64,000 nt of DNA. Origin: Candidatus Sumerlaeaceae bacterium (GTDB taxonomy: Bacteria > Sumerlaeota > Sumerlaeia > Sumerlaeales > Sumerlaeaceae). The notes under the pieces are model-generated. The model made no database searches and was not told where the DNA came from. It worked only from the letters and a program-made list of their open reading frames with translations. Location of the stretch: NCBI GenBank assembly GCA_049968255.1, contig JBMFRB010000002.1, positions 153,772 through 217,771 on the forward strand, in the 5' to 3' direction. The position numbers were made by a program, and so were the translations under genes. Below, in pieces: positions 7,291 through 57,516 of the stretch (the stretch's first letter is position 1; each line of letters begins with the position of its first letter).

Positions 7291-7893
7291 ATGCCGTGTA
7301 GTGTTCTCAATGAAAGTGTCCTAGTGTTAAATAGACACTGGGTTGCAGTCCACGTGACGAACGCACGTCGTGCCCTCGTCCTTCTCTACGCCGCACATGC
7401 CCGAGTGGTGACGGAGGACTACTCTACTCACACCTTCGAAAGCTGGCGTGAGCTTTCGGCCGCCATGAACACGGTGAAAAAGATCATCACTCCAAGCTTT
7501 GAGATTGCCGTGCCAGAAGTTATTATGCTTACGGAGTTTAGCAAGTTTCCGCCACGCCACGTCAAGTTCTCGCGGCGTAACATTTATCTGCGGGACAATT
7601 TTACGTGCCAGTACTGTGGAGCTGTTCCCCCACGGGAAGAGCTGACAATCGACCACGTTATCCCGCGATCGCGTGGGGGGCGAACCGTGTGGGAGAACGT
7701 CGTTCTGGCGTGTGTCAAGTGCAATACGATGAAGGGCAACCGTTTGCCAGAAGAAGCTGGACTTGTGTTGCGCACGAAGCCACGAAAACCTCACTGGTTG
7801 GCTTGCACAAGCTTCAATCTGCCATCGCAGCCCAGTTCTCTGTGGCAGCGTTTTCTCGATAATGCTTACTGGAATACACCGCTCCGGCCCTAA
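7291..7893 (+). CDS. HNH endonuclease-family protein
   Basis: ATG at 7291. C-terminal HNH/zinc-finger motif (CQYCGAVPPREELTIDHVIPRSRGGRTVWENVVLACVKCNTMKGN). N-terminal about 100 aa of unknown function. Confidence 0.75.
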   Translation: MPCSVLNESVLVLNRHWVAVHVTNARRALVLLYAAHARVVTEDYSTHTFESWRELSAAMNTVKKIITPSFEIAVPEVIMLTEFSKFPPRHVKFSRRNIYLRDNFTCQYCGAVPPREELTIDHVIPRSRGGRTVWENVVLACVKCNTMKGNRLPEEAGLVLRTKPRKPHWLACTSFNLPSQPSSLWQRFLDNAYWNTPLRP

Positions 7894-9390: not shown

Positions 9391-10977
9391 CTAAGCTTTC
9401 CCTAAGATGGCGATTAGTTGTTCGGGCGTGTGAGCGTCTACAAAGTCGCGGAACGATTCACCATTTTGGGCCCATGCTTCGAACGCTTTACACAGACGAA
9501 CCAGGGTTGGAGCCAAGGCCGACGCTGGCACCTTGCGCATAATAGTCTCAGCAAATCGGGGCTGCGCGCCGGTTCCACCGCCGAGTTGGATGTCGTAAAC
9601 CTCCACGGGTTGACCTTCAACTTTGGTCAGGCCGCCGCGCAACCCAATGTCGGCGATGGCAGTCTGGCCGCAGTTATTGGGGCAGCCACTTATGTGGATC
9701 CTCAACTTCCGGTGAAAGTTTGGCAAGGCTTCCTCAAGCTTACGCGAGAGTTCGATGGATAAAGCTTTAGTCTCAGTGATGGCGAGGTTGCAGAACTCGG
9801 TTCCGGTGCAGGCTACCATATAGCGCCGGAAGCTACTTGGTCGAGGAGAAAATCCCAGCGCCTCGAGGTCATGAACAACATGGGGGATGTTGTCTTTGGG
9901 AATATGCGTAATAATGAAATTTTGCTTATTTGTGTTGCGAAGAGTGGCGTGAGTCGAGTACTGGTCCACAATGTCCGCCAGGCGCAGGAGTCTATCAGCT
10001 GAAGTCCGGCCCGACGTGACACCCACTCCAACGTAGTAGAGGCCGTCCTGTTTTTGCGGATGAATGCCGAGATGATCGTCTTCTGTGTCGGCAGGTGGGG
10101 GCGGCGCGGTGTAACGTTCGAGCTGGTAGCCAAGCTTATTTTCCAAAAGGCGCAAAAAACCTTCCGCACCGATGCCTATTTTCGGATCGTGGATTAGGAA
10201 CTTGAGTCGAGCTTTTCCACGATCTTCGCGCAGCACGTCGCTATCACGGAAAATCGTAGTGATTTCGCGCACGACGTCAAAAACTTGATCGTAAGAGAGA
10301 AACACATTGAGATCAGCGGCAAAATAGGGGCGTGTTGACAGCCCGCCACCCACCATGAGGCCAAAACCGAACTCGTAGCGATTGCCAACTTTCCGCTCGA
10401 TGCCATATAATCCTACGTCGTTAATCTGCGGTTGGGCGCATCTCTGTCGGCACCCTGCGATCGAAATTTTGTACTTACGGGGGAGATTGGAAAACTCTTT
10501 GTTGCCCGTGAGGTAGGTGCTGATGCGCTTCACCAAGGGGCTTGCGTCGCAGATCTCCGTGCCGTCGATCCCTGCAATAGGGCAGCCGACAACGTTACGG
10601 GTCACGTCGCCGCATGCACCAACGGTGTGCAGTCCCACTCGTTGCAGCCGGTGGAAGATCTCGGGCACATTCTCGATCCGGATCCAGTGAAGTTGGTAGT
10701 TTTGGCGTGTCGTGATATCAACTAACCCTCTTCCGAACTCCTGGGCGATGGCGGCTACCTCGCGGACCTGATTTGCCAACAGATCGCCGTTGGGAATCTT
10801 GACCCGAAGCATGAAATAACCATTTTTGGGTTTTTGCTGATACAATCCATACCACCGGAAGAGATCGACGTACTCGCGATCCATTTTCTCGAACCCAGCC
10901 GCGGCGGCTCGAATGATATCTTCCAAAACGTCCAAGCCGTCCTTCTGTCTTTTTAGGTGTTCAACAGTCGTAGCCAT
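9391..10977 (-). CDS. Ferredoxin-dependent nitrite/sulfite reductase hemoprotein (siroheme/[4Fe-4S] family)
   Basis: 528 aa, ATG at 10977. Two nitrite/sulfite reductase ferredoxin-like half domains with Cys cluster motifs (CTGTEFCNLAITETK ... CPNNCGQ ... CRQRCAQPQ). Whether it is NirA or Sir cannot be decided from context. Confidence 0.8.
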   Translation of the reverse strand: MATTVEHLKRQKDGLDVLEDIIRAAAAGFEKMDREYVDLFRWYGLYQQKPKNGYFMLRVKIPNGDLLANQVREVAAIAQEFGRGLVDITTRQNYQLHWIRIENVPEIFHRLQRVGLHTVGACGDVTRNVVGCPIAGIDGTEICDASPLVKRISTYLTGNKEFSNLPRKYKISIAGCRQRCAQPQINDVGLYGIERKVGNRYEFGFGLMVGGGLSTRPYFAADLNVFLSYDQVFDVVREITTIFRDSDVLREDRGKARLKFLIHDPKIGIGAEGFLRLLENKLGYQLERYTAPPPPADTEDDHLGIHPQKQDGLYYVGVGVTSGRTSADRLLRLADIVDQYSTHATLRNTNKQNFIITHIPKDNIPHVVHDLEALGFSPRPSSFRRYMVACTGTEFCNLAITETKALSIELSRKLEEALPNFHRKLRIHISGCPNNCGQTAIADIGLRGGLTKVEGQPVEVYDIQLGGGTGAQPRFAETIMRKVPASALAPTLVRLCKAFEAWAQNGESFRDFVDAHTPEQLIAILGKA

Positions 10978-11171: not shown

Positions 11172-12890
11172 TCACTTCACATATTCGCTAATCACGCTGC
11201 GGACAATTGGGTTGCGTGCCAGGGCCTCGGAAGCCTCCGAATACGAGAAACGTCCCGTAGCCAACAGAAGGGCTTTGGGTACAACCTTTTCCACATTTTT
11301 GGCGATCTCAATACACAAGCTAATGGAAGCTTCCCGCTGCGCCTCTGTTAGCTCATCTGTTTGGAAAATGGACTTCAGCAGAGCTTCCAAAGCTTCCTCC
11401 GCGGACACCCCCATAAGGTCCGTGATGATCGAAATTGTCCGATGAAAAAGTTTATTATTGGAAATACGCAGGTCAACCATGCGGTTTCCAAAAACTTTCC
11501 CCGCCAAAATATGCCCACCAGTCGTCGTTGCGTTCAGCACAAGCTTAATGGCCATTTCGAGAGGAGCGACGCCGAGGTGTGGATGAACGGAAATTGGTAA
11601 GTTTACCACGATGTCCGCTTCGGGTGGCTCCCCGCTCCAGTGAAGGCCAGCCATATGTGCACCACTGCGGCGAATGTCTTCAAGTAGATTGTGACTATCG
11701 GCGGGCTTACCTATGAAAATGCAAAGATCATCCTCTTTGAGCTTCGGGAGTTTGTTCCGTCGAAAATCATCAAGCGAAACCTGGTAATGAGCGGCTCGCG
11801 AAGACAAATCGACCGACCCATCGGGGAAGAGGCATCTCCAACCACTTTCAACGAAGCCGCGCACGTCTTCGAAATCTGCTCCGAAGGTCGGGGGGCACTC
11901 GGATGCATCAATTAGGCCTAAAATTCCTCCATCTACCGCTGCGTACTCACCCGCATTGAGCCGCATCCGTCCTGCATTCCCGAGGTAGTAGATGTGGCAT
12001 TTCTTGCGGAGTGCGTTTCCGCCCCACGCGATGAGCTGTGCGATTTTGTCAGCTTCTAAATAGGTTGTACGATATGCAGTTTCGTATTCCCGCAGGCACT
12101 GCAACACATACGCATCGAGGTCCTCTTCGTGCAGACCGCCTTTTAGCAGCTGGAATGCGCTAGAGAAAACAATTTCCAACACAATCTTTGTCGCAGTGCC
12201 GCTTTTCATGCGGGTGGAGCCCGTGATGGGCTCGGGGCCAACGATGGGATTCAGAATGGTGCCGTTTGGTGCCCCTGCCACCTTTTCTGCCGTAGCCTTG
12301 AACGAAAATGGCCAACCTTCCACCGGTGTTGAGCGGGCTAAGTCGACTGGATTGAAACCAACGAGTACGGCATGCCAGTTTCGGGTTTCGAGCGCGAGTT
12401 CAAGTTGACCCGCAATGTAGGGTGCGCTGAAACCGCACGTGATCCCAAAATAAAGCACGCGTGGCGCACCCTGCGCTAATTGTCTCAGTTCTTGTTGCGC
12501 TTTGTAAGGATCGTCTTCAGCTCCCTCTTGCGCTTGAATAAGTGCGGGTGGGCCGCCAGCAATCAGGAAGCGGAAAGGTTCGTAGCCAAGCGCACGCCAT
12601 GCCGTGTTGAACTCGCGTGCAAGAAACATCGCAAGGCGCCCACTCGTCCCGGCCCCACTCAAGACAATCACATTTTTCTGATCAGAGCAAAAGTCACGCA
12701 CGAGCTTTGCGCTGCGCGCCATAGCGTCGATGCAAGGCCGATCGTAGAAGCCGGCATAAGTACTGTAGCCTGCAAAAATCTGGGCGTCGGTTTGCCTAAG
12801 CAGCCGCACAATCCCGACGGGCGGAGCTAAATCAATATCAGTCGTCAATGGATTTGGTGTCTCTGTGAGCGACCGCAGTTTGCGCTCCAT
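11172..12890 (-). CDS. Glucokinase-regulatory-protein (GCKR)/MurQ-family protein with two SIS domains
   Basis: The ORF track start (13037) is TTG. ATG at 12890 has a purine-rich RBS (GGAAGGGGAAAGGG). The product is collinear with vertebrate GCKR along its whole length: LTETPNPLTTDIDL, VLSGAGTSGRLA, FLIAGG, GxSAPYxAGQ, VLVGFNPV, LNPxxGPExxxGSxRMKxGxATKIxLE, and the C-terminal GKVxxNxMxDLRISNxKLF. Confidence 0.8.
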   Translation of the reverse strand: MERKLRSLTETPNPLTTDIDLAPPVGIVRLLRQTDAQIFAGYSTYAGFYDRPCIDAMARSAKLVRDFCSDQKNVIVLSGAGTSGRLAMFLAREFNTAWRALGYEPFRFLIAGGPPALIQAQEGAEDDPYKAQQELRQLAQGAPRVLYFGITCGFSAPYIAGQLELALETRNWHAVLVGFNPVDLARSTPVEGWPFSFKATAEKVAGAPNGTILNPIVGPEPITGSTRMKSGTATKIVLEIVFSSAFQLLKGGLHEEDLDAYVLQCLREYETAYRTTYLEADKIAQLIAWGGNALRKKCHIYYLGNAGRMRLNAGEYAAVDGGILGLIDASECPPTFGADFEDVRGFVESGWRCLFPDGSVDLSSRAAHYQVSLDDFRRNKLPKLKEDDLCIFIGKPADSHNLLEDIRRSGAHMAGLHWSGEPPEADIVVNLPISVHPHLGVAPLEMAIKLVLNATTTGGHILAGKVFGNRMVDLRISNNKLFHRTISIITDLMGVSAEEALEALLKSIFQTDELTEAQREASISLCIEIAKNVEKVVPKALLLATGRFSYSEASEALARNPIVRSVISEYVK

Positions 12891-13000
12891 TTTACCCTTT
12901 CCCCTTCCCATTTTTTGGCAAGTCGTCGCTTGGAAGTGCGCCAGCAAACGTCTCTTTTCCCAAGCTGCGGGCTCCAACCGTGCGCGCTCAGAAACGTCTT

Positions 13001-14036
13001 TCAACGAAGAAAAACAGGGACAGATACATCGCTCCAATACGTGCCATCTTCTCTTACGGGGGCGATAGCTAGTGCAAAGACGTTGGATTCATCTGGTGTC
13101 GTGCTCCAAAAGCGAGCGCCAGCCCGTGCTCCAGCGAAGCTAATGGTGCTGACAAAATTCCCATTCTTGTCGACGGCAATTTTTTGAGCCCAGACCGGCA
13201 CTCCACCATCTGGCGGCATTAGGTACACGACAATTTGCCGGCAACTGCGCGAGACCTTTCCCGCGAGAACATAGATGGCGTCGCACCTGAGTTTCACGGA
13301 AATGAGAGAGCTTTGCGTGACATGAATAGCATTCGTAGTAAACACCTGATGAGGGAAGGGTGAATCACCCGGAAAGCTGTAGGCACTCTCGAGAGCATTC
13401 TGAGAGAAGTACTCCTTTCCTTCCTCCGGCACACCGTCTGGGCAATCTACGAACCTCGCAGGAAGTGATTGTCCTACGGCATTCTGCACCTGGAAATGTA
13501 AATGCGGTTTAGTGGAGTAGCCAGTGTTGCCGCTTTTGGCGATCGGCTGCCCGCGACACACGATGTCGCCTTCCCGCACGAGTGCCGAGTGGGCCTTTAG
13601 ATGCAAATACTGGCTAAAAATGCCATGGCCGTGATCAATGATGATTCGATTAGCTCGGGTGCGCCCTTTTGGATCAAACGTCGGAGCAGTGTAACTTTGC
13701 TGAACGCACACCACTCGACCGCCCGCTGCGGCACAAACGGTTTCTCCCTCCGGTAAGTCAAAATCCCAAGCGTAGTGATTGAAGCCATAATGGCTGAAGC
13801 GCCCACCAAAACCCTGAATCACACGAAATGCTTTTCCTTTCTCGTACGGTAGGCAAAACATGATCCCACTAGTAGCGACGTCGCACAGGTCAGTTGAAGC
13901 CACGTCGGCATCTTGCGCTCCTGCCCAAGGCGCGTAGCTCCACACGACCACAAGAAGCCAGGTCTGGATCACGCGCACGCAAGGACGTTTGTTACGCCAA
14001 AATTTGCAGAGAAAAGCCTTTGTCATTATCTGTCCT
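13001..14036 (-). CDS. M23-family peptidoglycan metalloendopeptidase (secreted)
   Basis: ATG at 14036 gives a signal peptide (MTKAFLCKFWRNKRPCVRVIQTWLLVVVWSYAPWAGA). M23 motifs are present: HYAWDF, IIIDHGHGIFSQYLHL and GNTGYSTKPHLHFQV. Confidence 0.8.
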
Positions 14037-14225
14037 AGGATACCAAAGCCCACCCCTGATTCAACTCGATCCTTGCCGCAGAACCTGCCAGAGGATTGGC
14101 GATCCTCTTTGTCGTTTGGTGCTGGGCTCCATCAGGCGCGAGCATCGCGTAGCCAAGCTTGCTTGAGCGCTGTCCTTGAAACTTGTTTGATTTCCCTGTT
14201 TTAGCAGGGGATTTTACGTGAGCAG

Positions 14226-15284
14226 ATGTTTACGCAAATTCTATCGCAACCCGAAGTTGTGGCCGTTGCTGTCAGTGCAAGTGTTTGCTACGTTGCTACC
14301 TGGATTGTCCGGGGAGCCATGTGGCGTTTGGGCGTTCTGGACATCCCCACTGGCGAGCGAAAGCGCCATCGCTACCCTGTGCCTTATGAAGGGGGCGTTG
14401 CCATGTATCTGGGGTTCATCTCCGGCCTTGTTTCGTACGCACTCATGGATTGCTCGGCGCTATTGTGGTACGACGTCGCTAAAGCCCTTGTCATTGGCGC
14501 CACAGCCAGCACTGCGATTGGGGTGATTGACGATGTCCTGGATCTTCGCCCGTGGGCTAAGTTTATTGCCCAGCTCTTCATTGGAGTGCTTATGTATCAT
14601 TTCGGCTTCCGGATCGAACGGATCAGCAATCCCTTCGGCAACGAAGTCAGTGTCATGGGTGGAGTGAGTTTGCTTGGGACGGTGCTGTGGTACGCGCTTC
14701 TTATGAATGGGATAAATATGATAGATGGAGTTGATGGCTTAGCGGCTGGCATCGTGGCAATCTCAGGCGCGACGCTTGGTCTTATTGCGCTGGATCTTCA
14801 ACAACCCGTGGCAGCAGTGGTTGCGTTCATTTTGAGCGCCGTCTGCCTTGGGTTTCTTCCTCACAATTTTTATCCCGCGCGAATTTTCATGGGTGATGCT
14901 GGCAGCTTGTTGCTTGGCTTTCTTCTGGCTTCCCTCACTCTCATGTCGAGCAGTAAAACGCCAGCGGTCCTCACACTGGCGGTCCCAATTGTAGCCGTCT
15001 GCCTTCCGCTTTTTGAGACGCTCTTTGCTTTTGCTCGACGGGTGGCAAAGGGCCAGCATCCTTTCAAAGGAGATCGCAGCCACCTGCATCACCGGTTTTT
15101 GGATTTGGGATTTACCGAGCGCCGCACTGTCCTTATTCTCTACTATCTCACGGCCTACGTCGGCGTCATTGCCTACGTGTTGCAAAAACTCGATTCGCGT
15201 CTGACTCTGCTCATGGCCTTTTTCCTTGGGCTGGGTCTCTATCTGCTCGCGGAGAGCTTGGCGTTTCTGCGGCGCCGCAGTTAG
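14226..15284 (+). CDS. UDP-GlcNAc:undecaprenyl-phosphate GlcNAc-1-phosphate transferase (WecA/TagO family)
   Basis: 352 aa polytopic membrane protein. DDxxD (GVIDDVLDL), NMIDGVDGLAAG, and a C-terminal SHLHHRFLDLGF that resembles WecA rather than the MraY HHHxE motif. Confidence 0.75.
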   Translation: MFTQILSQPEVVAVAVSASVCYVATWIVRGAMWRLGVLDIPTGERKRHRYPVPYEGGVAMYLGFISGLVSYALMDCSALLWYDVAKALVIGATASTAIGVIDDVLDLRPWAKFIAQLFIGVLMYHFGFRIERISNPFGNEVSVMGGVSLLGTVLWYALLMNGINMIDGVDGLAAGIVAISGATLGLIALDLQQPVAAVVAFILSAVCLGFLPHNFYPARIFMGDAGSLLLGFLLASLTLMSSSKTPAVLTLAVPIVAVCLPLFETLFAFARRVAKGQHPFKGDRSHLHHRFLDLGFTERRTVLILYYLTAYVGVIAYVLQKLDSRLTLLMAFFLGLGLYLLAESLAFLRRRS

Positions 15285-18446: not shown

Positions 18447-19577
18447 TTAGAGGTAAATCCGCGGCAGGCGCAGTCCCACTCTCGTGGTTAGCTCGTAGCC
18501 GATAGTTCCGATCTTGTCCGCTACTTCCTCTGCCCGGAGCATGAGATTACCACTGCGCCCAAAGGCGAGAACCTCATCCCCAATTACGACTTCGGGGATA
18601 TCAGTCACATCGAGTAGAGAAAGATCCATGCACACGCGTCCGACCTGTGGGGCGAGCACCCCGCGCAATCCCATCTGAGTTTTATTGCTGGCGTGTCGCG
18701 GGTAGCCATCGGCGTAACCAAGTGGCACTGTGGCAATGCGTGAGTGGCGGGTCGTGATGAATGTGTGGCCGTAGCTCAGGCCAGTGCCGGGCGGCACCTC
18801 CTTTACGAAGATCACTCGCGACTTCATGCTCATTGCCGGGATAAGATTCGGACGCGCGACAACATCGAAACTGGGCAACTGCCCGTAGAGACTGATTCCT
18901 GGCCGCACCGCATCAAAATGAGATTCAGGAAAATCCAGCAATGCTGCAGAGTTTGCCAGATGAAAACAAGGAATGCGAAAGCCGCCGGCCTCGATCGTTT
19001 CTCTCACATCCGCAAAGGTTGCAATCTGCCGGCGAGTAAGTTCGCGCTCAGGGGTATCGGCGCACGGAAGATGACTCATCACTCCAGCGATTGCGAGACA
19101 ATCGTAACTGGCAACTTTTCGCACGAAATCTATGACGTCACTTGGCGCGACACCAAGCCGCCCCATTCCCACATCAACTTTCACATGGACACGAGCGGGT
19201 TTGCCAAGAACTCTCGCCGCCGCGGCAAGCGCCTCGAAATGTTCCTGAGCACACACGACTGCTTCACACCCCAAACCAACGAGTAATTGTGCCTGGCCTT
19301 GCAGAGGTGGTCCGAAAACGAGCACGCGCGAAGCAATACCCGCGGCACGTAACTCGGCGGCTTCTTCGCATCGCGCGACGCACAAAACTGGCGCGCCCTC
19401 ATCCAGCAAGGCACGAGCAGTAGGCACCGCGCCATGTCCATAGGCATCCGCTTTGATTACGCCAAAAACTAGGACTTGTGAGCTAACGCGTTTTCGCAGC
19501 TCGCGATAATTGTGGCGAATGGCGCTCAGATCTATCTCCAGCCACGACAGCGGTTCAGCCTCAGCCAGTTTAGCCAT
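18447..19577 (-). CDS. alr: Alanine racemase
   Basis: PLP-lysine motif (VIKADAYGHG) with N-terminal TIM-barrel and C-terminal beta domain. 376 aa. Confidence 0.9.
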   Translation of the reverse strand: MAKLAEAEPLSWLEIDLSAIRHNYRELRKRVSSQVLVFGVIKADAYGHGAVPTARALLDEGAPVLCVARCEEAAELRAAGIASRVLVFGPPLQGQAQLLVGLGCEAVVCAQEHFEALAAAARVLGKPARVHVKVDVGMGRLGVAPSDVIDFVRKVASYDCLAIAGVMSHLPCADTPERELTRRQIATFADVRETIEAGGFRIPCFHLANSAALLDFPESHFDAVRPGISLYGQLPSFDVVARPNLIPAMSMKSRVIFVKEVPPGTGLSYGHTFITTRHSRIATVPLGYADGYPRHASNKTQMGLRGVLAPQVGRVCMDLSLLDVTDIPEVVIGDEVLAFGRSGNLMLRAEEVADKIGTIGYELTTRVGLRLPRIYL

Positions 19578-24261: not shown

Positions 24262-25380
24262 ATGACTGAACGAAGACTCAGCAAGGTTTTGCTCGCGGCA
24301 GGTGGCACGGGTGGCCACATTCTGCCAGCGATTGCTCTCGGGCGTGCGCTAGAAGAAAGGGGCCTGGCAAAAGTCTCCTATCTATGCGGCCAACGGCCGG
24401 TGGAACTCGACCTCTACAGCCGCGAGAACATCGAGCCAATTGTGGTTCCCGTTCGGCAGTTGGGAGCTTCTGTGCTCGAACGACTACGTGGCGGCTGGGC
24501 CGCGATTGCGGTGACCTGGCGATGCAGGCGGTTGATCCACGAGGAGCGATTTGACGCGGTCGTGGGGATGGGGGGATACGTTTCAGGGCCGGCCGTATTG
24601 GCGGGGATCGTGACCAGACGCGCAACGGTTATTCACGAGGCGAATTCTGTGCCGGGCAAAACAAACCGCTGGCTGGCCCCATGGGTCAAGATGGTTGCGG
24701 TGAACTTTTCACGCACGGCCTCGCAGCTGCGCAGCAGACAATGTGAAATTGTGGGCATGCCAATTCGCAGCCGAATCTTGCATGGGTTTCGGGAAAAAGG
24801 AATAGAGCTTTTTGGACTCGATGCGCGCAAGCGAACCTTACTCGTTGTAGGGGGCAGCCAAGGCGCACGCAATCTCAACTACGCACTCGCTGGGGCGCTG
24901 CCCCTGCTCGACAGGCCGGAATTCTCGGATGTGCAGCTCCTCTGGAGCACGGGAGCGAGTCATTACGACAACCTTGTAGGCTTGGTGAGTCGGCTAGGGC
25001 TTCAGCATTTACGTGTGAAATTGGTTCCGTTTATCGCGGAAATGGAGCATGCGCTCGCGTGTGCAGACGCGGCGATTTCTCGAGCTGGGGCGAGCGCGAT
25101 TGCGGAGCTTCTTGCCACCGGTGTGTTTGCTCTGTATGTGCCTCTGCCAAATGCAATTTACGATCACCAGCGAAAAAACGCACTGGAACTGGTTTCTGCT
25201 GGACTCGGCATGATGTTGCTCGAGCACGAGATGACTCCCCAGACAACGATGTCTGCGATTGCCGAACTTCTTGCTTTAGCGCCAGCAAAGCGAGAGGCTG
25301 TGGCAGCAGCAGGGGAGATTCATCGCCATGCGGCGGAGAAACTTGCCATGCTTGTGAGTGAGGCAGCGAATTCGCGGTGA
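24262..25380 (+). CDS. murG: UDP-N-acetylglucosamine--N-acetylmuramyl-(pentapeptide)-pyrophosphoryl-undecaprenol GlcNAc transferase
   Basis: N-terminal G-loop (LLAAGGTGGHILPAIAL) and GT28 two-domain architecture. 372 aa. Confidence 0.9.
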   Translation: MTERRLSKVLLAAGGTGGHILPAIALGRALEERGLAKVSYLCGQRPVELDLYSRENIEPIVVPVRQLGASVLERLRGGWAAIAVTWRCRRLIHEERFDAVVGMGGYVSGPAVLAGIVTRRATVIHEANSVPGKTNRWLAPWVKMVAVNFSRTASQLRSRQCEIVGMPIRSRILHGFREKGIELFGLDARKRTLLVVGGSQGARNLNYALAGALPLLDRPEFSDVQLLWSTGASHYDNLVGLVSRLGLQHLRVKLVPFIAEMEHALACADAAISRAGASAIAELLATGVFALYVPLPNAIYDHQRKNALELVSAGLGMMLLEHEMTPQTTMSAIAELLALAPAKREAVAAAGEIHRHAAEKLAMLVSEAANSR

Positions 25381-25395
25381 GCAAATGAGCCTTTG

Positions 25396-26217
25396 TTATT
25401 GAGTTAACTTCGATCTCCAGCGGACGTATCCAAGGAGACCAATCCCAAGCAGAATCATGATGGCGCAGAGGATTTGTCCCATTGTCATCCAGCCGAAATA
25501 GTAGGGAAGTTGCGGATCTTTCTCTCGAAAGAATTCCAACAGGAAGCGGATACAGCCGTACCAAAGAAGGGCCACACTTGTGATTGTCCCATGATTTTTG
25601 ACGCGCCGCCGTATGGACCAGAGCAAAAGAAACAGAAGGATGCCCTCGCCCAAAGCTTCGTAAAGCTGCGAAGGGTGACGAGCTGACGTGTAGTTGAGGA
25701 TGTTGCCCATGTCGTCGTAGATCGGAAATCGCATGGCCCACGGCATGGCTGTGGGGCGTCCGTAGAGCTCGGCATTGATAAAATTGCCGAGCCGACCGAG
25801 CGCAATGCCTGGGGCCGCAGCAATGGCTAGGCTGTCCGTCAGATTTAGCAGAGGAAGGCTGTGGCGGCGGGCATAGAAATAACAGATGAAGATCATGCCG
25901 ATGGCGCCTCCGTGAAACGACAGGCCGCCGTGCCAAATCGCGAAAGGGGTGTACCACCAGACAAACGGCGAGTCGGGTGTTGGCACATAATATACGAGCA
26001 TGTAAATGCCCCGTGCGCCAATCAGCATTCCCAGAAAAAGAGAGAGCAGAAAACTTTCGATACGCGTTTCTGACAGGCGTAAAAAGTTTTCGCGCGCGAG
26101 TTTCCGCAAAATTTGCCATCCGATGAGATAGGCGAGAACGTACATCACGCCGTACCACCGAATGCGTAACGGGCCGATACGCAGCAGCTCTGGGCCAATT
26201 TCGGGATACCGAATCAT
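25396..26217 (-). CDS. lgt: Prolipoprotein diacylglyceryl transferase
   Basis: Start ATG 26217 (MIRYPEIGPELLRIGPLRIRWYGVMYVLAYLIGWQ...). Lgt signature (GARGIYMLVYY, HGGLSFHGG) and multiple TMs. The overlapping 458-aa ORF in another frame is spurious. Confidence 0.85.
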   Translation of the reverse strand: MIRYPEIGPELLRIGPLRIRWYGVMYVLAYLIGWQILRKLARENFLRLSETRIESFLLSLFLGMLIGARGIYMLVYYVPTPDSPFVWWYTPFAIWHGGLSFHGGAIGMIFICYFYARRHSLPLLNLTDSLAIAAAPGIALGRLGNFINAELYGRPTAMPWAMRFPIYDDMGNILNYTSARHPSQLYEALGEGILLFLLLWSIRRRVKNHGTITSVALLWYGCIRFLLEFFREKDPQLPYYFGWMTMGQILCAIMILLGIGLLGYVRWRSKLTQ

Positions 26218-26293
26218 CTTGCGTGGATGCTCCGATTGATGCCAATCGCCTCGAACACGACACAGCGCCTTGTGTAGCAAAGTCTAGAGGATC

Positions 26294-27691
26294 ATGCGAC
26301 AAATGGCAGCCAGCATGAACATCACGAAGCACTATTACACCCCGGATCTGAGCAGATTGAAGGCTATTGCATCTGAGGCTCCACTTTTGAGTCCAGAACA
26401 AGCGCAAGAGATCCTCGACCGTTCGGAGATCCCCGCGCTTTCATTGCCTGAGGTAGCGGGCTTCGTAAAGGCAGTGCTGAGCAATCCTGTGGGCAAAGTG
26501 ACGCAACTTGTGCTCGAAAAAGCTGTCGGACTTCGTCGCGCACTGTTTAGTGATGCTGTTGTGCCGATGGCGCCGATGGAAATCGCTAACACCTGTGCTT
26601 CCGACTGCATCTTTTGTGGCTGGCGTATTTCCAACAGCGAAATGAAGCGTCTGCGCATGCCCGATGATCTTATTCTTCTTCAGGTCGAGTATCTCCTCGA
26701 CTTGGGCATAAACTACATCGAATTTGTTTCCGGTGATGATCTGGTCGCTGTGCGACAGCAGTTGCCGCGATTACTTGCGCGCACGAAAGAACTTTTTCAG
26801 GCGCGCGGCGTGGAAGGCAAAACATGCTTTTGCACCTTGGCGCTAACCGAAAAGCAATATAGTGAGCTACGCGACGGTGGCGCCGATGCGATGATTGTGT
26901 GGCAGGAAACCTATGATCCGGACGTTTTCGCGCGTTACGTCACCGATGGTCCAAAAGCTTTTGGTATCCGTGACGACTGGACGTGGGATAAAAGTGGCAA
27001 TGGCTGGTTGTTTCGTTACCAGTCGCAGGAGCGAGCCTTGCGCGCAGGCCTTGAAGTTGCCCTCGGAACGATGCTGGGTCTCAATCCTGATGTAACGTTT
27101 GAATTTCTAGCGACAGTGGATCATGCCCGGTACCTTCTCGACAATTATTCGCTTACGCCCGAACATCCGCTGATCATTGGGATGCCAATCTGGAATCCGA
27201 TTCCAACTCGCACATCAGACATGCGGAGAAGCGATTTGCCGGATATCGAGAAGCTCTTTCCGGTTTTTGCTGCCTTGTATTTGCTTAGCCTTCCCACCCC
27301 TGCAACGTGGGTTTTCCCGAACTGCCGTGTGCCTCTGACCGTGCAAGTTGAAGCGGCTCGTGTGGCAGGCGCTTTCACGTCCACCGAGGTCAAGCTCGGT
27401 CCGGGAGGTTATCTACCCTCTGTCATTCAAAAAATGGAAATGCAGGGCAAAAACACGGTCGCGTTGCGCAAGCGACTGGCGAGATTGCTTCGCGAGGCAG
27501 GTGAAAATGTGGACGAACTAGCGCGCGCACTCGATGAGCGGGAGCAGTTTGTGCACCACTACCATGCCCACGTGGCGTATCTGCGCGCGTTAGCAGACGC
27601 AGGCCTGTCCGTTGTGTCCGGGGTGCGCATCCCTGAAGTCGCTAAGAATGTATGCCAGAGCCCAGATGTGGTCGTGTGCGGCGAAGGCTAG
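26294..27691 (+). CDS. Radical SAM enzyme of the ThiH/HydG/NosL (tyrosine-lyase-like) family, orphan, with about 100-aa C-terminal extension
   Basis: ATG at 26294. CxxxCxxC in a ThiH-like context (MEIANTCASDCIFCGWRISNSEMKRLRMPDDLILLQVEYLLDLGINYIEFVSGDD) with about 90 aa ahead of the cluster, as in ThiH/HydG. The C-terminal tail has no HydG-type second cluster motif. Confidence 0.7.
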   Translation: MRQMAASMNITKHYYTPDLSRLKAIASEAPLLSPEQAQEILDRSEIPALSLPEVAGFVKAVLSNPVGKVTQLVLEKAVGLRRALFSDAVVPMAPMEIANTCASDCIFCGWRISNSEMKRLRMPDDLILLQVEYLLDLGINYIEFVSGDDLVAVRQQLPRLLARTKELFQARGVEGKTCFCTLALTEKQYSELRDGGADAMIVWQETYDPDVFARYVTDGPKAFGIRDDWTWDKSGNGWLFRYQSQERALRAGLEVALGTMLGLNPDVTFEFLATVDHARYLLDNYSLTPEHPLIIGMPIWNPIPTRTSDMRRSDLPDIEKLFPVFAALYLLSLPTPATWVFPNCRVPLTVQVEAARVAGAFTSTEVKLGPGGYLPSVIQKMEMQGKNTVALRKRLARLLREAGENVDELARALDEREQFVHHYHAHVAYLRALADAGLSVVSGVRIPEVAKNVCQSPDVVVCGEG

Positions 27692-28194
27692 CGCACGCGA
27701 CCAAAATCATCCTCGACGCGAACAATGTCATCTTCGTCCGACGGATTCTCTGGATCTGTACTTTGCCAAATCTCGGCAATGCGCCCCCAACCGTGCAGGC
27801 CAGTGAGCCGATGCCATGCTCCGCAAGGAATTTGCACAACTTCACCCGTATCAAACACAAAAGTTTCAAGGCTGGAACCATCTGGGCCGATTTCAATTTT
27901 TACCGGCCCGTCGATGACACGCCAGTGTTCGCATCGGCGATGATGATACTGCAGCGAGAGGCGCTTGCCTGGTGCGACAAGGAGAATTTTAGGGTCAAGA
28001 CGAAGTCCCTTATCGAGACCACTAACTTCTGTTCCTTGCCAGTAGGCGTGAAAAAAACGCAGAAAACTCGCTTCGCTGAAGCGCAGAAATCCGCCCCACG
28101 GCCGATCGCAGGAAGAGAGTTCTTCAAGTATCTCAATGCCAAACCCTCTGGCTTCAGCCTTGAGGCGTTCAAACAACCATTTTTTGAGTTCCAC
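27688..28194 (-). CDS. Cupin-domain protein (mannose-6-phosphate isomerase type II C-terminal-like)
   Basis: GTG start with AAGGAG RBS. Cupin motifs: RPWGGF, KILLVAPGKRLSLQYHHRRCEHWRVIDGPVKIEI, and TGEVVQIPCGAWHRL. Confidence 0.65.
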   Translation of the reverse strand: MELKKWLFERLKAEARGFGIEILEELSSCDRPWGGFLRFSEASFLRFFHAYWQGTEVSGLDKGLRLDPKILLVAPGKRLSLQYHHRRCEHWRVIDGPVKIEIGPDGSSLETFVFDTGEVVQIPCGAWHRLTGLHGWGRIAEIWQSTDPENPSDEDDIVRVEDDFGRVR

Positions 28195-28275
28195 CTTTCC
28201 AGGATCTCCTTCTTACGCGCAACTTGCCTGCCGACAGCCAGTAGAGTCTATGTTTGCAGGGCTTATTATACGTAA

Positions 28276-40273: not shown

Positions 40274-42283
40274 CTAATCTGTTGTACGGCCGAGGCGTCG
40301 CGTAATTTTGCCCAGTATGCTTTGGAATTCGGGAATATGTAACGTCACCGATGCTGCGCTATAAGTCAAAAGGCCAACAATGGTTCCCAGCATGAGCCGG
40401 ATGAGTTCCTCAAGTTGCAGGGTCGCCAGCCAGGTGCGTCGTAAGGCCTCTGCACTTATCTCGAATCGCGCTGTAAGCTGGTCAACAGGTGCGTGGATAA
40501 CAGCGACAAGGTAAGCGGGTTCTTCCAAGGCAGTGGGGGCTGGGTGGCCGTGTTTGTGAATTCTCACCAGGAGTTCTCCGCGGCGTCTGTCAGAATCGAG
40601 CACAACTCGAGAGAGGGCTAGTGATGCTGTTGTGCTTCCACGTGGAGCAAAAACCACGGCGACACGAGCTTTGCGGAAATCGATCGGGGGGGGCGGTGTG
40701 TCGTCGCGAGCGATCAATTTCCAGAATGCGCTCAGCTCCTCGGACGTGTGAAGGGTGAGGACCGCGCCGCCGTCGTAGCGTGCGCTTACATGGCCCGGAA
40801 ATCGCTCGCCACTCTCGATGACAATGGCAGGGGAGACGTGCAACTTGCTAGCACCAGAGACGGCCAAAGCCATGATGCCTGCGGCAGCAATCATTTTCCA
40901 CACAGACCATAAGCCGCCAAGATCACCAGCGACCGCAAAACGGCGATCGAGGATGAGGTAGGAGAGAAGCGTTGTGATCACATAGGTCACTGCGGCAGCG
41001 ATCGGGACGCAAAGTATGCTTAGAGACTTATAAAGCCCTACCATGAGAACGACCGAAAGCGCCACACCAAGAATGTTGATCCACATGGGAGTCCAAGTGT
41101 CTTGCTGCGCATAAAAGCCGCGGCTGGCGAGGATGACCAGCGAATAGGGAACAATAGACAGCGCATATACGGCCAGAAAACGGGCTGTGAATTGCGTGTT
41201 GGCGTAAGTGAACTGACCTCTTTCAAAAAGTACCCGAACAATTGGTACTGCCAGCGTCGAAAGCAGAACGACAACGGGGAGCAAGATAAAAATCGTCCAT
41301 CGCGTCCCCATAACGACGGTAGCCAAGAATTCGCGCTTTGCAGCCTTTGCGGCGTGTTCGGCTAGGACGGGGTAGAGCACCGTGGCGATCGAAACAGCGA
41401 TGATGCCGTAAGGCATCATGATGAGCTGGAAGCAGAATGTGTAAGTTGTGAAGCCGCTTCCCACCGTGTAAAGGATATTGGATCGAACAATCGTTCCGAT
41501 GAGATTTGCGAGGCCGACGCCAAGCACCGGTAACCCTAACGTGAATATTGAACTAAGTAGGGGATCGCGAAGGCTTAGTTGGGGGCGCGCAGGCCATCCG
41601 AGCGAGAGTAGCCACGGAATTTGGCAAAACGCCATCGCAGCGATGCCCAACGTAGTTCCCACAGCAAGGCCAGTAATTCCGACAAGCCCAAGCCAATACA
41701 ACAAGAGCGTCACGATGACGACAACGTTGTTGAGAATCGGTGCCGCAGCGGTGATCGCAAAAACACCCCGCGAATTGAGAATGGCCATGAACACCGCATT
41801 GAGGCCGTAAAAGAACATTTGCGGTGCGAAGAACCGAAAGAAATACGTTGCAAGCTCTCTACTCTGCTCGGCGTGGACGCCTTTGCCGAAACGTGTCAGG
41901 AGACCAACGATCGTCGGAGAAAAAAGCACCGCCAACGCTGAGACAGCAGCAAGAACTAATCCGACATAGCCGAGCAGCAGATTTGCAACTCTCCAGGCTT
42001 GCGCCGAATCCTTGCCGTAGCGCTGTTGCGTTTCCACAAGCAGTGGAATAAGAATCGCGCTCAGCATGCCGCCAATGACAAATTCGTAAACAATGTTGGG
42101 AATCGTGTTGGCCAATTGATAGGCGTCATCAAAACGACCGCTTCCTAAAACAGCGGCGAACACGGAGACGCGCAGCAGACCAGTAATTCGGCTGAGCAGA
42201 GTCAGAAGCGAAAATGCTAGGGTGTTTTTGGCCAGTTGACTCACGGCGTTTGTCAAGTCGGTCCTGCGCGAGCGCAACGTCAA
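40274..42283 (-). CDS. murJ: Lipid II flippase MurJ (MviN family) with about 170-aa C-terminal cytoplasmic extension
   Basis: N-terminal MurJ signature (LLTLLSRITGLLRVSVFAAVLGSGRFDDAYQLANTIPNIVYEFVIGGMLSAILIPL) and 14 TM-type hydrophobic segments over about 500 aa. The last 170 aa or so are hydrophilic and of unknown family. TTG start per ORF track. Confidence 0.8.
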   Translation of the reverse strand: MTLRSRRTDLTNAVSQLAKNTLAFSLLTLLSRITGLLRVSVFAAVLGSGRFDDAYQLANTIPNIVYEFVIGGMLSAILIPLLVETQQRYGKDSAQAWRVANLLLGYVGLVLAAVSALAVLFSPTIVGLLTRFGKGVHAEQSRELATYFFRFFAPQMFFYGLNAVFMAILNSRGVFAITAAAPILNNVVVIVTLLLYWLGLVGITGLAVGTTLGIAAMAFCQIPWLLSLGWPARPQLSLRDPLLSSIFTLGLPVLGVGLANLIGTIVRSNILYTVGSGFTTYTFCFQLIMMPYGIIAVSIATVLYPVLAEHAAKAAKREFLATVVMGTRWTIFILLPVVVLLSTLAVPIVRVLFERGQFTYANTQFTARFLAVYALSIVPYSLVILASRGFYAQQDTWTPMWINILGVALSVVLMVGLYKSLSILCVPIAAAVTYVITTLLSYLILDRRFAVAGDLGGLWSVWKMIAAAGIMALAVSGASKLHVSPAIVIESGERFPGHVSARYDGGAVLTLHTSEELSAFWKLIARDDTPPPPIDFRKARVAVVFAPRGSTTASLALSRVVLDSDRRRGELLVRIHKHGHPAPTALEEPAYLVAVIHAPVDQLTARFEISAEALRRTWLATLQLEELIRLMLGTIVGLLTYSAASVTLHIPEFQSILGKITRRLGRTTD

Positions 42284-47856: not shown

Positions 47857-49209
47857 TTATTCGAGAGCCGCTGACAGCGGCTTATGTTCGGGGCGAAAGG
47901 TGGGATCTGTCTGGGCAAAATAGTCGTTGATAGCGTTGTAGAGCAAGATGGCGGTCAGCTTTTGGAATTTGGGATTAATGAGATACCGCAACTCATCGGT
48001 GTTTGTAATAAAACCAACCTCAAGGAGCACTGCTGGCATATAGAAGTTTTTGAGCACGACGAAATTTGCGCTCTTGATCCCGCGGGCATAGCTACGAAAA
48101 TAAGGGTGTTGTTGGAAAGAGCTAAGGATTCGGGTGCAGACCACATAGCTTTCGTACTGCCAGCTTTCCAGTTTTTGCCGTTCGAGGTCTGTGAGCACTT
48201 GCGCAAGTAATGGGGTTCCTGCGCGCGTTGCAGAGCCGCCGGTCAGCACGTCAAGGTTTTCGCGTTCAGCCACGGCTTTAGCTGCGGCGTCATCGGCTCC
48301 CTTCTCACTGAGATAGAAAATCTCCATTCCGCGTGCATTTGGATTTCCCCCGCCGTCGTTCATGTGGATGGAAATAAAGAGGTCCCCTTTCTGCTTTTCT
48401 GCAAATGCGACGCGGTCAGGCAGAGGGACAAGCACATCGCCAGTGCGCGTAAGCACCGCTACCATGTTTGGCGATGAGTCAAAAAGCTTTTTCAAATGAT
48501 AAGCAAATTGCAGCGTCAGTTCTTTTTCGTAAACAACGCGGCCGTTGACCAGCGCCGTGCTCGACGCACCTTGATTTGCACCGCCGTGTCCTGGATCAAT
48601 GACCACAATCTTTTTCGCTCCCTGACCCCGCCGACTCATGAGTGGCGAAAGAGCAGGCTCTGGGATGGGCGGGATTCGTGCCGAGGAGGTACGGTCGCGA
48701 ATGACAATTGGGGACACCGCGTTGCCCTGTTTGGAAGTTGGCGTCATTAGGCCAGTGGCGAAAGGCGACGCTAACGGTGTAGTCGTCGCGAGCGTGTCAA
48801 TGTAAAGACGAACGGGAGAAGTTTCGCGTTGGATTCGGAAAGCCTGAGCACGCTCTTTCACGTAGAAAACGAAACGCAGCACCCCATGCTCGGGATACGA
48901 GATGGATTCGACCTGGCGAACAAGGGAATCATCGATGTCGAGCAGCCGTCGCTTGTACGGGGTCGCAATCCCATAAATATCCACGTAATAGAATCCTTTG
49001 TTGTGGATATTGTCTGCGGCGTTGACAACCACGTCCTGATCAAGTTCGACAGCGAAGCGGGTTTTGTCGGGGGTGGATTCCCAAGAAATCCTTGTGACTG
49101 AGGCAGCACTGAGGGGTGACGCGACATGAAAACAGAGCATCAGTCCCAGGCCGGCACACAATGCGCGCGCTCTTGAAATAAAAGAAAACCATATATTAAC
49201 GCGGCGCAT
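47857..49209 (-). CDS. N-acetylmuramoyl-L-alanine amidase (AmiC type, AMIN domain + Amidase_3)
   Basis: Signal peptide, N-terminal AMIN-like beta domain and a catalytic Amidase_3 domain (KIVVIDPGHGGANQGASS ... LFISIHMNDGG). ATG at 49209. Confidence 0.8.
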   Translation of the reverse strand: MRRVNIWFSFISRARALCAGLGLMLCFHVASPLSAASVTRISWESTPDKTRFAVELDQDVVVNAADNIHNKGFYYVDIYGIATPYKRRLLDIDDSLVRQVESISYPEHGVLRFVFYVKERAQAFRIQRETSPVRLYIDTLATTTPLASPFATGLMTPTSKQGNAVSPIVIRDRTSSARIPPIPEPALSPLMSRRGQGAKKIVVIDPGHGGANQGASSTALVNGRVVYEKELTLQFAYHLKKLFDSSPNMVAVLTRTGDVLVPLPDRVAFAEKQKGDLFISIHMNDGGGNPNARGMEIFYLSEKGADDAAAKAVAERENLDVLTGGSATRAGTPLLAQVLTDLERQKLESWQYESYVVCTRILSSFQQHPYFRSYARGIKSANFVVLKNFYMPAVLLEVGFITNTDELRYLINPKFQKLTAILLYNAINDYFAQTDPTFRPEHKPLSAALE

Positions 49210-49289
49210 CAACTTTCCTTGCGAGGGCGAGAATTCCTCTCGTCTGTGCTGTTCAGCGCATTGTGCTGTATGCGGCTCTTTCGGGAGCT

Positions 49290-54091: not shown

Positions 54092-54781
54092 ATGAAAATC
54101 ATGCGCGGAGTTGTGGCGGCAACTGCTGTTTTTGCTATGTTCACGGTCTCTTGCAGGGCGGCCGATGAAGTTCAGCAGGCGCTAGAAAAGGTGAAACACG
54201 CCTTTTCAAAGGTCACGGGAGTGGAGGCTGTGGTAGAAACGCGTCATGAAACGAACGACCAGGACGTGATACTTACGCGCTCCCTTGTACTCTCCAAGAA
54301 CTATGGATGGAAAATTGAGGAGGGAGTGGGAAAGCTTCACCGTCTCATCATCAACGACTTCCAGACTAACATTGTTTATTATCCTGAGCAAAAGCGTGCT
54401 CTGAAATTGAACGCAAAGTCTGCCGATATCGCGTCGGAGTTTAAGAAGCCGGTGACTGACTTGAATCCGATTTTCTCTCTCGAACGTTCATCGCTCAAGC
54501 TTCTTGGCACTGAGGACCTAGACGGCGAGAAAGTGTATCATTTCGAAGGCACAACGACAACGCAGTTTCTGCGGTCAGGCAAACCAGTGAAAATCCGGAT
54601 TGAGGCCTGGGTGGCCGAGCACGATGGTTTGCCGCGCAAGACCATTGAACGCTGGGAGGACCGAACAGGAACAACAATTTACCGTGACATTGTTTTGCGC
54701 GATGATTTGACAACAGATGTCTTCAAATTCACGCCGCCCTCCGGAGTGGAGATCATCGAAATTGGTGATGAAGCGCCCTGA
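54092..54781 (+). CDS. Secreted LolA-like (outer-membrane lipoprotein carrier-like fold) protein
   Basis: Signal peptide (MKIMRGVVAATAVFAMFTVSCRA). LolA-like sequence pattern, including a C-terminal FKFTPPSGVEII motif. Confidence 0.5.
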   Translation: MKIMRGVVAATAVFAMFTVSCRAADEVQQALEKVKHAFSKVTGVEAVVETRHETNDQDVILTRSLVLSKNYGWKIEEGVGKLHRLIINDFQTNIVYYPEQKRALKLNAKSADIASEFKKPVTDLNPIFSLERSSLKLLGTEDLDGEKVYHFEGTTTTQFLRSGKPVKIRIEAWVAEHDGLPRKTIERWEDRTGTTIYRDIVLRDDLTTDVFKFTPPSGVEIIEIGDEAP

Positions 54782-56597: not shown

Positions 56598-56802
56598 TGC
56601 CTTGACCAGCTTTCGCGATGTGTAGCAGCATAGGCAAGAACAATGCCACAGCGTCGTGCAGGCCATCGGATGCGTAGGCCCAGGCCCAGAAGGGGGGCGA
56701 ATTGCGCCTGGGCTGCAAGAGGCAATCCGAAAGCGTTGTGAGCGCGGTTTGATATTTCCGACGGAGAGAAGGGACATCGTGCAGCCAGAAGAATACTCTC
56801 GG

Positions 56803-57516
56803 ATGTTCAGCGTGGAAGATACGTTTTGGTGGTATCGAGGACTCCGTGCTCTTTTGAAGGAAACTCTCATAGATCTCTCCAAAAAAAAGAGCGAGCACCG
56901 ATTGCAAGTTATCGATGCGGGGTGTGGGACCGGCGCCAATATCAGCGAGTGCAGAATGCTCATCGAGGGCTTGGGAATCGATCTCGCGTGGGAAGCTCTG
57001 GTTTTGGCCCGCAAGCGTGGCCTCCAACATCTCGTCCGTGGGCGCATACAGGAACTTCCCGTACGCGATGCCAGTTGCGATGTTCTCATGAGCATTGATG
57101 TGCTTTATCACCGCTGGATTGAGAATGATCTTCAGGTTTTGCGGGAGTATTTTCGTGTGCTGGTGCCGGGCGGGTGGTTAATTATTCATGTTGCTGCTCA
57201 TGAGTGGTTGCGGGGAAGCCATGACGAGGTGGTCATGACGCGACATCGTTACTCGCGATCCGAGCTGGTAGAAAAAGTTTCTGCAGCTGGGTTTCGTGTG
57301 AGGCGGGCAACTTATCGCAACACCCTTCTTCTCCCCTTGATGCTGCTGCGGCGCCTTATAACTGCGAACACCCCTGTGCCCGTATCGGATTTGCGGGTTC
57401 CTCCACGATGGCTCAATGAGACTCTTTACTGGGTTTTATGGGTCGAAAATGCATTGCTTCGTGTCGCAGATTTTCCTACAGGGGGATCGCTCTTTGTCCT
57501 CGCACAGCGGCCGTAG
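56803..57516 (+). CDS. Class I SAM-dependent methyltransferase
   Basis: Start ATG 56803 (MFSVEDTFWWYRGLRAL...). SAM-binding motif I (VIDAGCGTGANI) and post-I/II motifs (DVLMSIDVLYH, LVPGGWLII). Confidence 0.7.
   Translation: MFSVEDTFWWYRGLRALLKETLIDLSKKKSEHRLQVIDAGCGTGANISECRMLIEGLGIDLAWEALVLARKRGLQHLVRGRIQELPVRDASCDVLMSIDVLYHRWIENDLQVLREYFRVLVPGGWLIIHVAAHEWLRGSHDEVVMTRHRYSRSELVEKVSAAGFRVRRATYRNTLLLPLMLLRRLITANTPVPVSDLRVPPRWLNETLYWVLWVENALLRVADFPTGGSLFVLAQRP

Follow-up and report, generated by a model that had tools for sequence, protein, structure and literature searches.

A protein of glucokinase-regulatory-protein architecture in Sumerlaeota, a predicted single-chain N-acetylmuramic acid 6-phosphate etherase

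What does a bacterium do with a protein whose whole length lines up with that of the glucokinase regulatory protein (GKRP, GCKR) of vertebrates? The question is raised by a gene on the minus strand of a 64,000-nucleotide stretch of contig JBMFRB010000002.1 from a Candidatus Sumerlaeaceae bacterium (this whole stretch is called the window hereafter). An earlier description, made from the letters and translations only (the sequence-only reading), presented its 572-aa product as a full-length GCKR-like protein comprising two SIS domains plus a C-terminal lid, and left its function as either a sugar-phosphate etherase/isomerase or a sugar-phosphate-sensing regulator. Here we argue that the protein is probably a single-chain, pseudo-dimeric MurNAc-6-P (N-acetylmuramic acid 6-phosphate) etherase, which would produce N-acetylglucosamine 6-phosphate (GlcNAc-6-P) and D-lactate. 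This proposal is made because eukaryotic proteins of the same architecture, from Naegleria and lancelet, are proven MurNAc-6-P etherases, and it draws on the residues that the protein shares with them and with bacterial MurQ.

Architecture of the fused protein

The 572-aa protein belongs to the GKRP/MurQ-fusion family, as it carries the three Pfam domains GKRP_SIS_N (3e-34, 117.4 bits against a cutoff of 27), GKRP_SIS_2 (1e-16, 61.8 bits against 27) and GKRP-like_C (3e-31, 108.6 bits against 27.7) in the family order, each above its gathering score. When the PDB was searched with phmmer, residues 30-599 of human GKRP aligned in one piece to residues 8-565 of the query (E ~9e-95); rat and Xenopus GKRP matched in the same way, and MurQ structures gave weaker matches (1e-17 to 1e-23). 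Pairwise identity to human GKRP was 35% over 584 columns. Additionally, an AlphaFold2 (AF2) model built from 14 homologues (pLDDT 88, pTM 0.90) found Xenopus and human GKRP as its top Foldseek matches (3W0L and 4BB9, TM-score 0.84, whole chain), and MurQ spanned only about one third of it. The collinearity with vertebrate GCKR claimed by the sequence-only reading is thus borne out by the PDB match, the Pfam domains and the predicted fold, at a level far beyond chance. All the strings that it quoted (TETPNPLTTDID, VLSGAGTSGRLA, FLIAGG, ITCGFSAPYIAGQ, VLVGFNPV, LNPIVGPEPITGSTRMKSGTATKI and GKVFGNRMVDLRISNNKLF) are found in the translation, and its estimate of a length about double that of bacterial MurQ agrees with 572 against 298 aa for the E. 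coli protein.

Both halves of the protein align to E. coli MurQ, for which the annotated MG1655 locus served as reference, with about 30% identity each. Residues 6-252 correspond to MurQ 5-217, and residues 299-508 correspond to MurQ 56-258, including the lid. The phosphate loop of the second SIS domain is lost, with GNAGRM...GGILG in place of GxGTSGR. As judged from these alignments, the protein is composed of two MurQ repeats that were unevenly fused, the first without a lid and the second without a phosphate loop.

The active site and the predicted reaction

To describe the site we used two sets of reference residues: the E. coli MurQ residues Glu83 and Glu114, which we take to be catalytic and for which a literature search gave no confirmation, and the ligand contacts of human GKRP, whose numbering was checked on the PDB sequence. 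The sequence-only reading had asked whether the catalytic acidic residues of MurQ are conserved in either SIS domain, and both are, as E125 in SIS-1 and E331 in SIS-2 (Table 1). The DASECPPT motif around E331 is letter for letter the same in the query SIS-2 and in E. coli MurQ, and the phosphate-binding Ser/Thr loops together with the lid Lys/Arg are all there (T82, S83, T151-S155, S225, T226, K480 and R484). Among homologues, 13 active-site residues (T82, S83, E122, E125, D126, S225, R227, K229, D328, E331, T335, K480 and R484) do not vary among the bacterial representatives (48/48) and are the same in 75-76 of 76 eukaryotic ones; for E125, E331 and the phosphate-binding loop the eukaryotic count is 76/76. 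E93, the SIS-1 equivalent of Glu83 that would serve a second site, varies freely among homologues, and this variability, together with the loss of GxGTSGR from SIS-2, indicates that the second pseudo-site is degenerate. One composite site, built from SIS-1, SIS-2 and the lid, is thus complete, and its mirror image is dead. The retention of the full catalytic set across domains of life is the pattern expected of an enzyme.

According to these data, the uneven fusion would leave one of the two active sites formerly located at the dimer interface, formed by the SIS-1 phosphate loop (T82/S83, T151-S155 and S225/T226), Glu125, Glu331 of SIS-2 and Lys480/Arg484 of the lid. By analogy with MurQ, this site would remove D-lactate from MurNAc-6-P through elimination and then hydration, and the GlcNAc-6-P formed could enter the NagA/NagB route reported for Sumerlaeota. 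In this regard, a complete route of GlcNAc-6-P catabolism has been described for Sumerlaeota, which are regarded as scavenging detrital polymers (PMC8092238), and the supplements of that paper make no mention of murQ, anmK or nagZ. We infer the catalytic activity, its substrate and the physiological source of MurNAc-6-P, which could be the turnover of the cell's own wall or scavenged bacterial necromass. For the bacterium itself this would be a routine function, that of a probable muramic-acid salvage enzyme in a scavenger lineage.

A preprint on GKRP evolution (bioRxiv 10.64898/2026.05.08.723886) provides the activities on which the analogy is built. It states, citing Veiga-da-Cunha 2009, that the Naegleria two-repeat homologue has an etherase activity comparable to that of bacterial MurQ, and it reports active etherases in lancelet GKRP and in the resurrected chordate, vertebrate and gnathostome ancestors, with a kcat/Km of ~3e3 per M per s for E. 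coli MurQ.

Several points weigh against the etherase assignment. In the same preprint the etherase activity of rat GKRP is low or absent, and human GKRP retains both glutamates, so conserved residues do not guarantee activity; that of the bacterial fused members is predicted. The query also scores far below the cutoff of the NCBIfam equivalog TIGR00274 (157 bits against 302). For PRK12570 it gives 160 bits against 255. The MurQ subfamily model PRK05441 speaks for the assignment, with 172 bits against a cutoff of 168, though this score is summed over 4 stretches. Furthermore, MurNAc kinase, AnmK, MurP and MurR genes were absent within 6-10 kb in 13 related loci, whose gene contexts were taken from the homologue contigs. 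As MurNAc uptake and kinase genes are missing from these 13 loci and from the window alike, the supply of MurNAc-6-P is undocumented.

Because of this undocumented source and of the shortfall against the equivalog cutoff, an enzyme of the same mechanism (etherase, lyase or isomerase) could be envisaged to act on another substrate, such as N-glycolylmuramate-6-P, a different amino-sugar phosphate that is 3-O-substituted and comes from scavenged polymers, or a ketose or aldose phosphate. The absence of linked MurNAc uptake and kinase genes in 13/13 loci would fit such an enzyme, as would the scavenging of polysaccharides by Sumerlaeota and Phycisphaerae and the capacity of the GKRP-type site to bind several sugar phosphates, since fructose 6-phosphate, sorbitol 6-phosphate and fructose 1-phosphate inhibit or bind it according to the literature. 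However, the complete MurQ residue set is unchanged in the query, including DASECPPT and EGAED, and all two-repeat homologues reported as assayed outside placental mammals use MurNAc-6-P in the preprint (bioRxiv 10.64898/2026.05.08.723886). We consider a different substrate rather unlikely.

A sugar-phosphate sensor without catalytic activity, regulating a partner in the way vertebrate GKRP regulates glucokinase (GCK), would also need this conserved site, and the full-length collinearity with GKRP and the position of the gene on its own, apart from catabolic genes, are in keeping with such a role. However, the query has 7 residues before TETPN, against 29 in human GKRP, and thus lacks the regulatory N-terminus that mediates allostery; opposite human residues 440-480 it is ~12 residues shorter. 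In the ligand site, V180, V347 and I350-H351 of human GKRP depart from the family consensus, whereas the query carries the ancestral residues C152, S330 and P333-P334, which are common to nearly all non-vertebrate members. Pfam revealed no DNA-binding or other additional or partner domain in the 572-aa protein, the related loci contained no conserved neighbour gene fit to be a partner, and the 64-kb window holds no candidate for a glucokinase partner. In addition, the inhibitory function of GKRP is specific to jawed vertebrates in the preprint (bioRxiv 10.64898/2026.05.08.723886), GCK inhibition having needed the insertion of a six-residue GCK-binding loop, and non-vertebrate GKRPs are there said to leave their glucokinases uninhibited. 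A sensor therefore seems very improbable.

Between the two functions that the sequence-only reading left side by side, the conserved catalytic residues favour the etherase, and the missing N-terminal extension, the ancestral ligand-site residues and the lack of a DNA-binding domain speak against the regulator. It had also held that the protein would be an ordinary MurQ-type etherase if these residues were conserved and orthologues sat in MurNAc recycling clusters; the residues are conserved, and no MurNAc cluster was found in 13/13 loci.

The gene and its neighbourhood

The start codon of the gene was placed at the ATG at 12890, in agreement with the N-termini of all homologues and with the NCBI gene model, inside a longer open reading frame (ORF; Table 1). 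The NCBI counterpart (P0001), on a 478-kb contig of a Candidatus Sumerlaeaceae metagenome-assembled genome (MAG), is 100% identical over 572 aa and is labelled 'hypothetical protein'. GC content and GC content at third codon positions (GC3) lie within 0.6 standard deviations of the window mean, and being typical of the window they give no sign of recent acquisition.

Table 1. Coordinates of the fused gene, its domains and motifs, and the genes discussed with it
Feature	Position	Strand	Evidence or equivalence
Fused GKRP-type gene, 572-aa product	11172..12890	minus	ORF list; three GKRP Pfam domains; solved-GKRP match; NCBI protein
Stop codon of the fused gene	11172-11174	minus	
ORF containing the gene, TTG start, 621 aa	13037..11172	minus	
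Shine-Dalgarno-like purine-rich stretch GGGAAGGGGAAAGGG	12895..12909	minus	Read directly; just 5' of ATG 12890
SIS-1 domain, aa 1-262	12105..12890	minus	Pfam GKRP_SIS_N; aligns E. coli MurQ 5-217, 30% identity
N-terminal motif TETPNPLTTDID, aa 9-20	within SIS-1	minus	
Long connecting helix between SIS domains, aa 255-295	12006..12128	minus	AF2 model
SIS-2 domain, second MurQ repeat, aa 296-440	11571..12005	minus	Pfam GKRP_SIS_2; aligns E. coli MurQ 56-195
C-terminal lid domain with ISNNKLFHR, aa 441-572	11175..11570	minus	Pfam GKRP-like_C 3e-31
Phosphate-binding loop GAGTSGR, aa 79-85	12636..12656	minus	T82/S83 = human GKRP T109/S110
EGAEDD motif, aa 122-127	12510..12527	minus	E125 = E. coli MurQ Glu114 = human GKRP E153
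DASECPPT motif, aa 328-335	11886..11909	minus	E331 = E. coli MurQ Glu83 = human GKRP E348
P334	in DASECPPT	minus	Human GKRP has H351
T151-S155			Human GKRP S179-S183
T226			Human GKRP S258
Lid K480/R484			Human GKRP K514/R518
M23 peptidase gene, secreted-type peptidoglycan endopeptidase	13001..14053	minus	Pfam Peptidase_M23; 110 nt upstream of fused gene
NIR_SIR reductase gene	9391-10977	minus	Pfam; fused gene 195 nt upstream
GT4 MraY/WecA-like transferase	14226-15284		
Alanine racemase (Alr)	18447-19577		
MurG	24262-25380		
Lgt	25396-26280		
MurJ	40274-42283		
AmiC-type Amidase_3 amidase	47857-49212		
Amidase_3 (MurNAc-L-Ala amidase) + Beta-lactamase2-like fusion, 711 aa	L003 1805-3940	minus	Phycisphaerae contig

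The neighbours named by the sequence-only reading, an M23 peptidase and a nitrite/sulfite reductase, were recovered by Pfam, both on the minus strand, and tyrS also lies downstream of the fused gene on that strand. In the M23 peptidase the N-terminus is hydrophobic and signal-like and ~150 C-terminal residues lack a Pfam match, and its 58% identity to the counterpart in the related locus L082 is the second-lowest among the genes compared with that locus. No terminator-like site was seen in the 110-nt gap that separates the M23 gene from the fused gene, and the two may be co-transcribed. The rest of the window is of housekeeping character with a cell-envelope flavour, including a GT4 transferase, PlsC, alanine racemase, MurG, Lgt, PlsY, GpsA, MurJ and Amidase_3. 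The presence of MurG, MurJ, Amidase_3, M23 and Alr indicates that the organism makes peptidoglycan by the conventional pathway. Recycling genes for MurNAc or anhydro-MurNAc, which the sequence-only reading had described as lacking nearby, are indeed absent: Pfam analysis of the large ORFs of all 64 kb gave no murP, anmK, murK, nagA, nagB, nagZ-type or MurR gene.

L082, a 70%-identical relative, has the same succession of M23, fused gene, NIR_SIR and tyrS. Two Sumerlaeota-type loci that are more distant retain part of it (L084 has tyrS, L093 has NIR_SIR), the other loci have lost it, and M23 adjacency is retained only in the one close relative. A conserved operon partner was rejected on these grounds, as the M23/NIR_SIR/TyrRS order is confined to close Sumerlaeota relatives. 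A contig search by back-translated motifs was dominated by single-domain MurQ, which shares the motifs, and returned two fused loci. A gene active on peptidoglycan adjoins the fused gene in three independent lineages: M23 in the window and L082, an Amidase_3 fusion in L003, and a PF00144 penicillin-binding protein (PBP)/beta-lactamase in L002. The L003 fusion is divergent from the fused-etherase ORF, their starts lying a few bases apart, and the PF00144 gene of L002 recalls the PBP4B of the E. coli murQ-murP-yfeW operon. This recurring adjacency is a suggestive but weak support for the etherase assignment.

Other genes of the window also deserve mention. An HNH endonuclease ORF of 200 aa (7291-7893, plus strand) is 87.5% identical to its L082 counterpart, against 55-79% for the flanking housekeeping genes, which makes it unusually conserved for its neighbourhood. 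An XPB/RAD25-type helicase (59343-61133, plus strand; ERCC3_RAD25_C, ResIII and Helicase_C_3) is followed after 4 nt by a 913-aa protein (61137-63878, plus strand) with Helicase_C_3 as its only Pfam match, and the pair looks like a two-gene helicase module. Three ORFs had no Pfam match at E<=1e-5, namely 54092-54781 (plus strand, 229 aa), 55179-57095 (minus strand, 638 aa) and 27652-28275 (plus strand, 207 aa).

Distribution of the family and origin of the fusion

A word-indexed protein search with a limit of E<=1e-10 gave over 5,000 relatives, and names and architecture were read for the best 120. Each of these has the three domains and a length of 560-640 aa, and their MAGs bear the names Sumerlaeota, Sumerlaeia, Sumerlaeaceae or Phycisphaerae; many of the proteins are annotated 'MurNAc-6-P etherase' at JGI (automatically) and 'hypothetical protein' at NCBI. 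The fused family is phylum-wide in Sumerlaeota, where it shows broad vertical conservation, and is common in Phycisphaerae, with many members. The description of the protein as an interesting bacterial representative of the GCKR lineage is therefore fair but overstated, since thousands of such bacterial proteins are already public and many carry the automatic etherase name.

An exhaustive HMMER scan of 1.84 billion representatives at 50% identity gave 417 clusters at E<=1e-30. A midpoint-rooted neighbour-joining tree, built from 124 full-length, non-redundant members and human GKRP, divided the sequences into two groups of 48 and 77 members. Cluster members are mostly nameless metagenome entries, and the group labels rest on the named ones: every named sequence of the 48-member group is bacterial, and 8/8 named members of the 77-member group, which includes human GKRP, are eukaryotic (Barthelona, Anaeramoeba, Cavenderia, Diaphanoeca, Mizuhopecten, Stygiella and two EukProt transcriptomes). 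When the most divergent branch of the 48-member group provided the seed for another search, Sumerlaeota came up again, plus one Poribacteria entry. Some representatives were far over 600 aa with a partial GKRP-like region (P0248, 1330 aa; P0212, 842; P0233, 830; P0228, 824), and these may represent fusions to additional domains or eukaryotic gene models that were merged.

These data also bear on whether the gene could be a recent eukaryote-to-bacterium transfer or a contaminant of the MAG, with no native role. The closest solved relatives are vertebrate proteins, as such an event would predict. Against it stand the 478-kb bacterial contig, the native GC and GC3, the gene order shared with the 70%-identical relative, the strict conservation of the active site, and homologues throughout Sumerlaeota (40-80% identity) and in Phycisphaerae with bacterial genes alongside, one of which, in the 48-member group, lies immediately after the rpoA-rplQ ribosomal operon. 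Recent transfer or contamination is already effectively refuted, and in Sumerlaeota and Phycisphaerae the GKRP architecture is both old and conserved.

Where the fusion was made is a separate question. As bacterial and eukaryotic members share the domain boundaries and the surviving site, one fusion event explains this most simply. The preprint on GKRP evolution (bioRxiv 10.64898/2026.05.08.723886) describes GKRP as bacterial murQ that was duplicated and unevenly fused, and places this in eukaryotes; in its accessible part only eukaryotic two-repeat proteins are discussed and the phylogenies hold amoebae and holozoans only. Bacterial fused forms were not found in the literature on GKRP-like proteins, on MurQ/Glu83 or on MurQ in Planctomycetes and Sumerlaeota, a search that did not cover Veiga-da-Cunha 2009. 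We tentatively put forward, as a possibility that we do not favour outright, that the GKRP fusion arose in bacteria, in the Sumerlaeota/Planctomycetota neighbourhood, and that eukaryotes, and ultimately human GCKR, received the fused gene by ancient horizontal transfer. Scores against a profile of 14 single-domain MurQs were higher in bacterial members (median 198 bits) than in eukaryotic ones (164; Mann-Whitney p ~1e-14), which fits a bacterial origin and equally a slower bacterial evolution.

Trees of the fused family rooted with MurQ (neighbour-joining, gamma-Poisson distances, bootstraps) gave mixed signals. With the SIS-1 and lid part, a bacterial branch came first in 96/100 replicates, usually as a single long-branch taxon, and in ~65% after long-branch removal; with the SIS-2 part, the first branch was about 50/50, and a clean split between bacteria and eukaryotes had 5% bootstrap support. 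Given these signals, we claim no direction of transfer. The bacterial members open to direct test where the fusion originated and which way it was transferred, and they raise the question of the lineage in which human GCKR's ancestor was put together; these easily expressed proteins also offer outgroups for the ancestral reconstruction of a human diabetes-related protein.

Comparison with known systems

The systems most similar to the query are the eukaryotic two-repeat etherases (Naegleria gruberi, lancelet and the resurrected chordate and vertebrate ancestors), which share with it, at about 35-44% identity between eukaryotic members and the query, the succession of SIS-1, SIS-2 and lid and a single composite site in which the two glutamates, the phosphate loop and the Lys/Arg of the lid are all retained. 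According to the published work, these proteins are experimentally active on MurNAc-6-P and do not inhibit glucokinase, whereas the activity of the query is predicted from its sequence.

Canonical MurQ is a homodimer with one SIS domain and a lid per chain. The bacterial MurQ proteins (E. coli b2428; H. influenzae 4LZJ/1NRI; Yersinia 4S12) have the motifs TExxN, GxGTSGR, EGAED, DASECPPT, GSxRMK and NxKL..R in common with the query, and the predicted chemistry is the same. They differ in having ~300 aa and two sites per homodimer, against two SIS domains and one site in the query. With 572 aa and two SIS domains, the query is thus not a canonical MurQ, though it is predicted to work like one. 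Moreover, E. coli murQ lies in a murR/murQ-murP-yfeW cluster, which the query lacks.

Lastly, vertebrate GKRP (human, rat and Xenopus; 4BB9, 4LC9 and 3W0L) is collinear with the query end to end, with the identity and the predicted-fold similarity given above, and the same residues line the sugar-phosphate site in both. The vertebrate protein differs in its 29-residue N-terminal regulatory extension (query residue 8 corresponds to human 30), in its greater length at human 440-480, where gaps in the query total ~12 residues, and in the derived residues V180, V347, I350 and H351 of the mammalian ligand site, where the query has C152, S330, P333 and P334.

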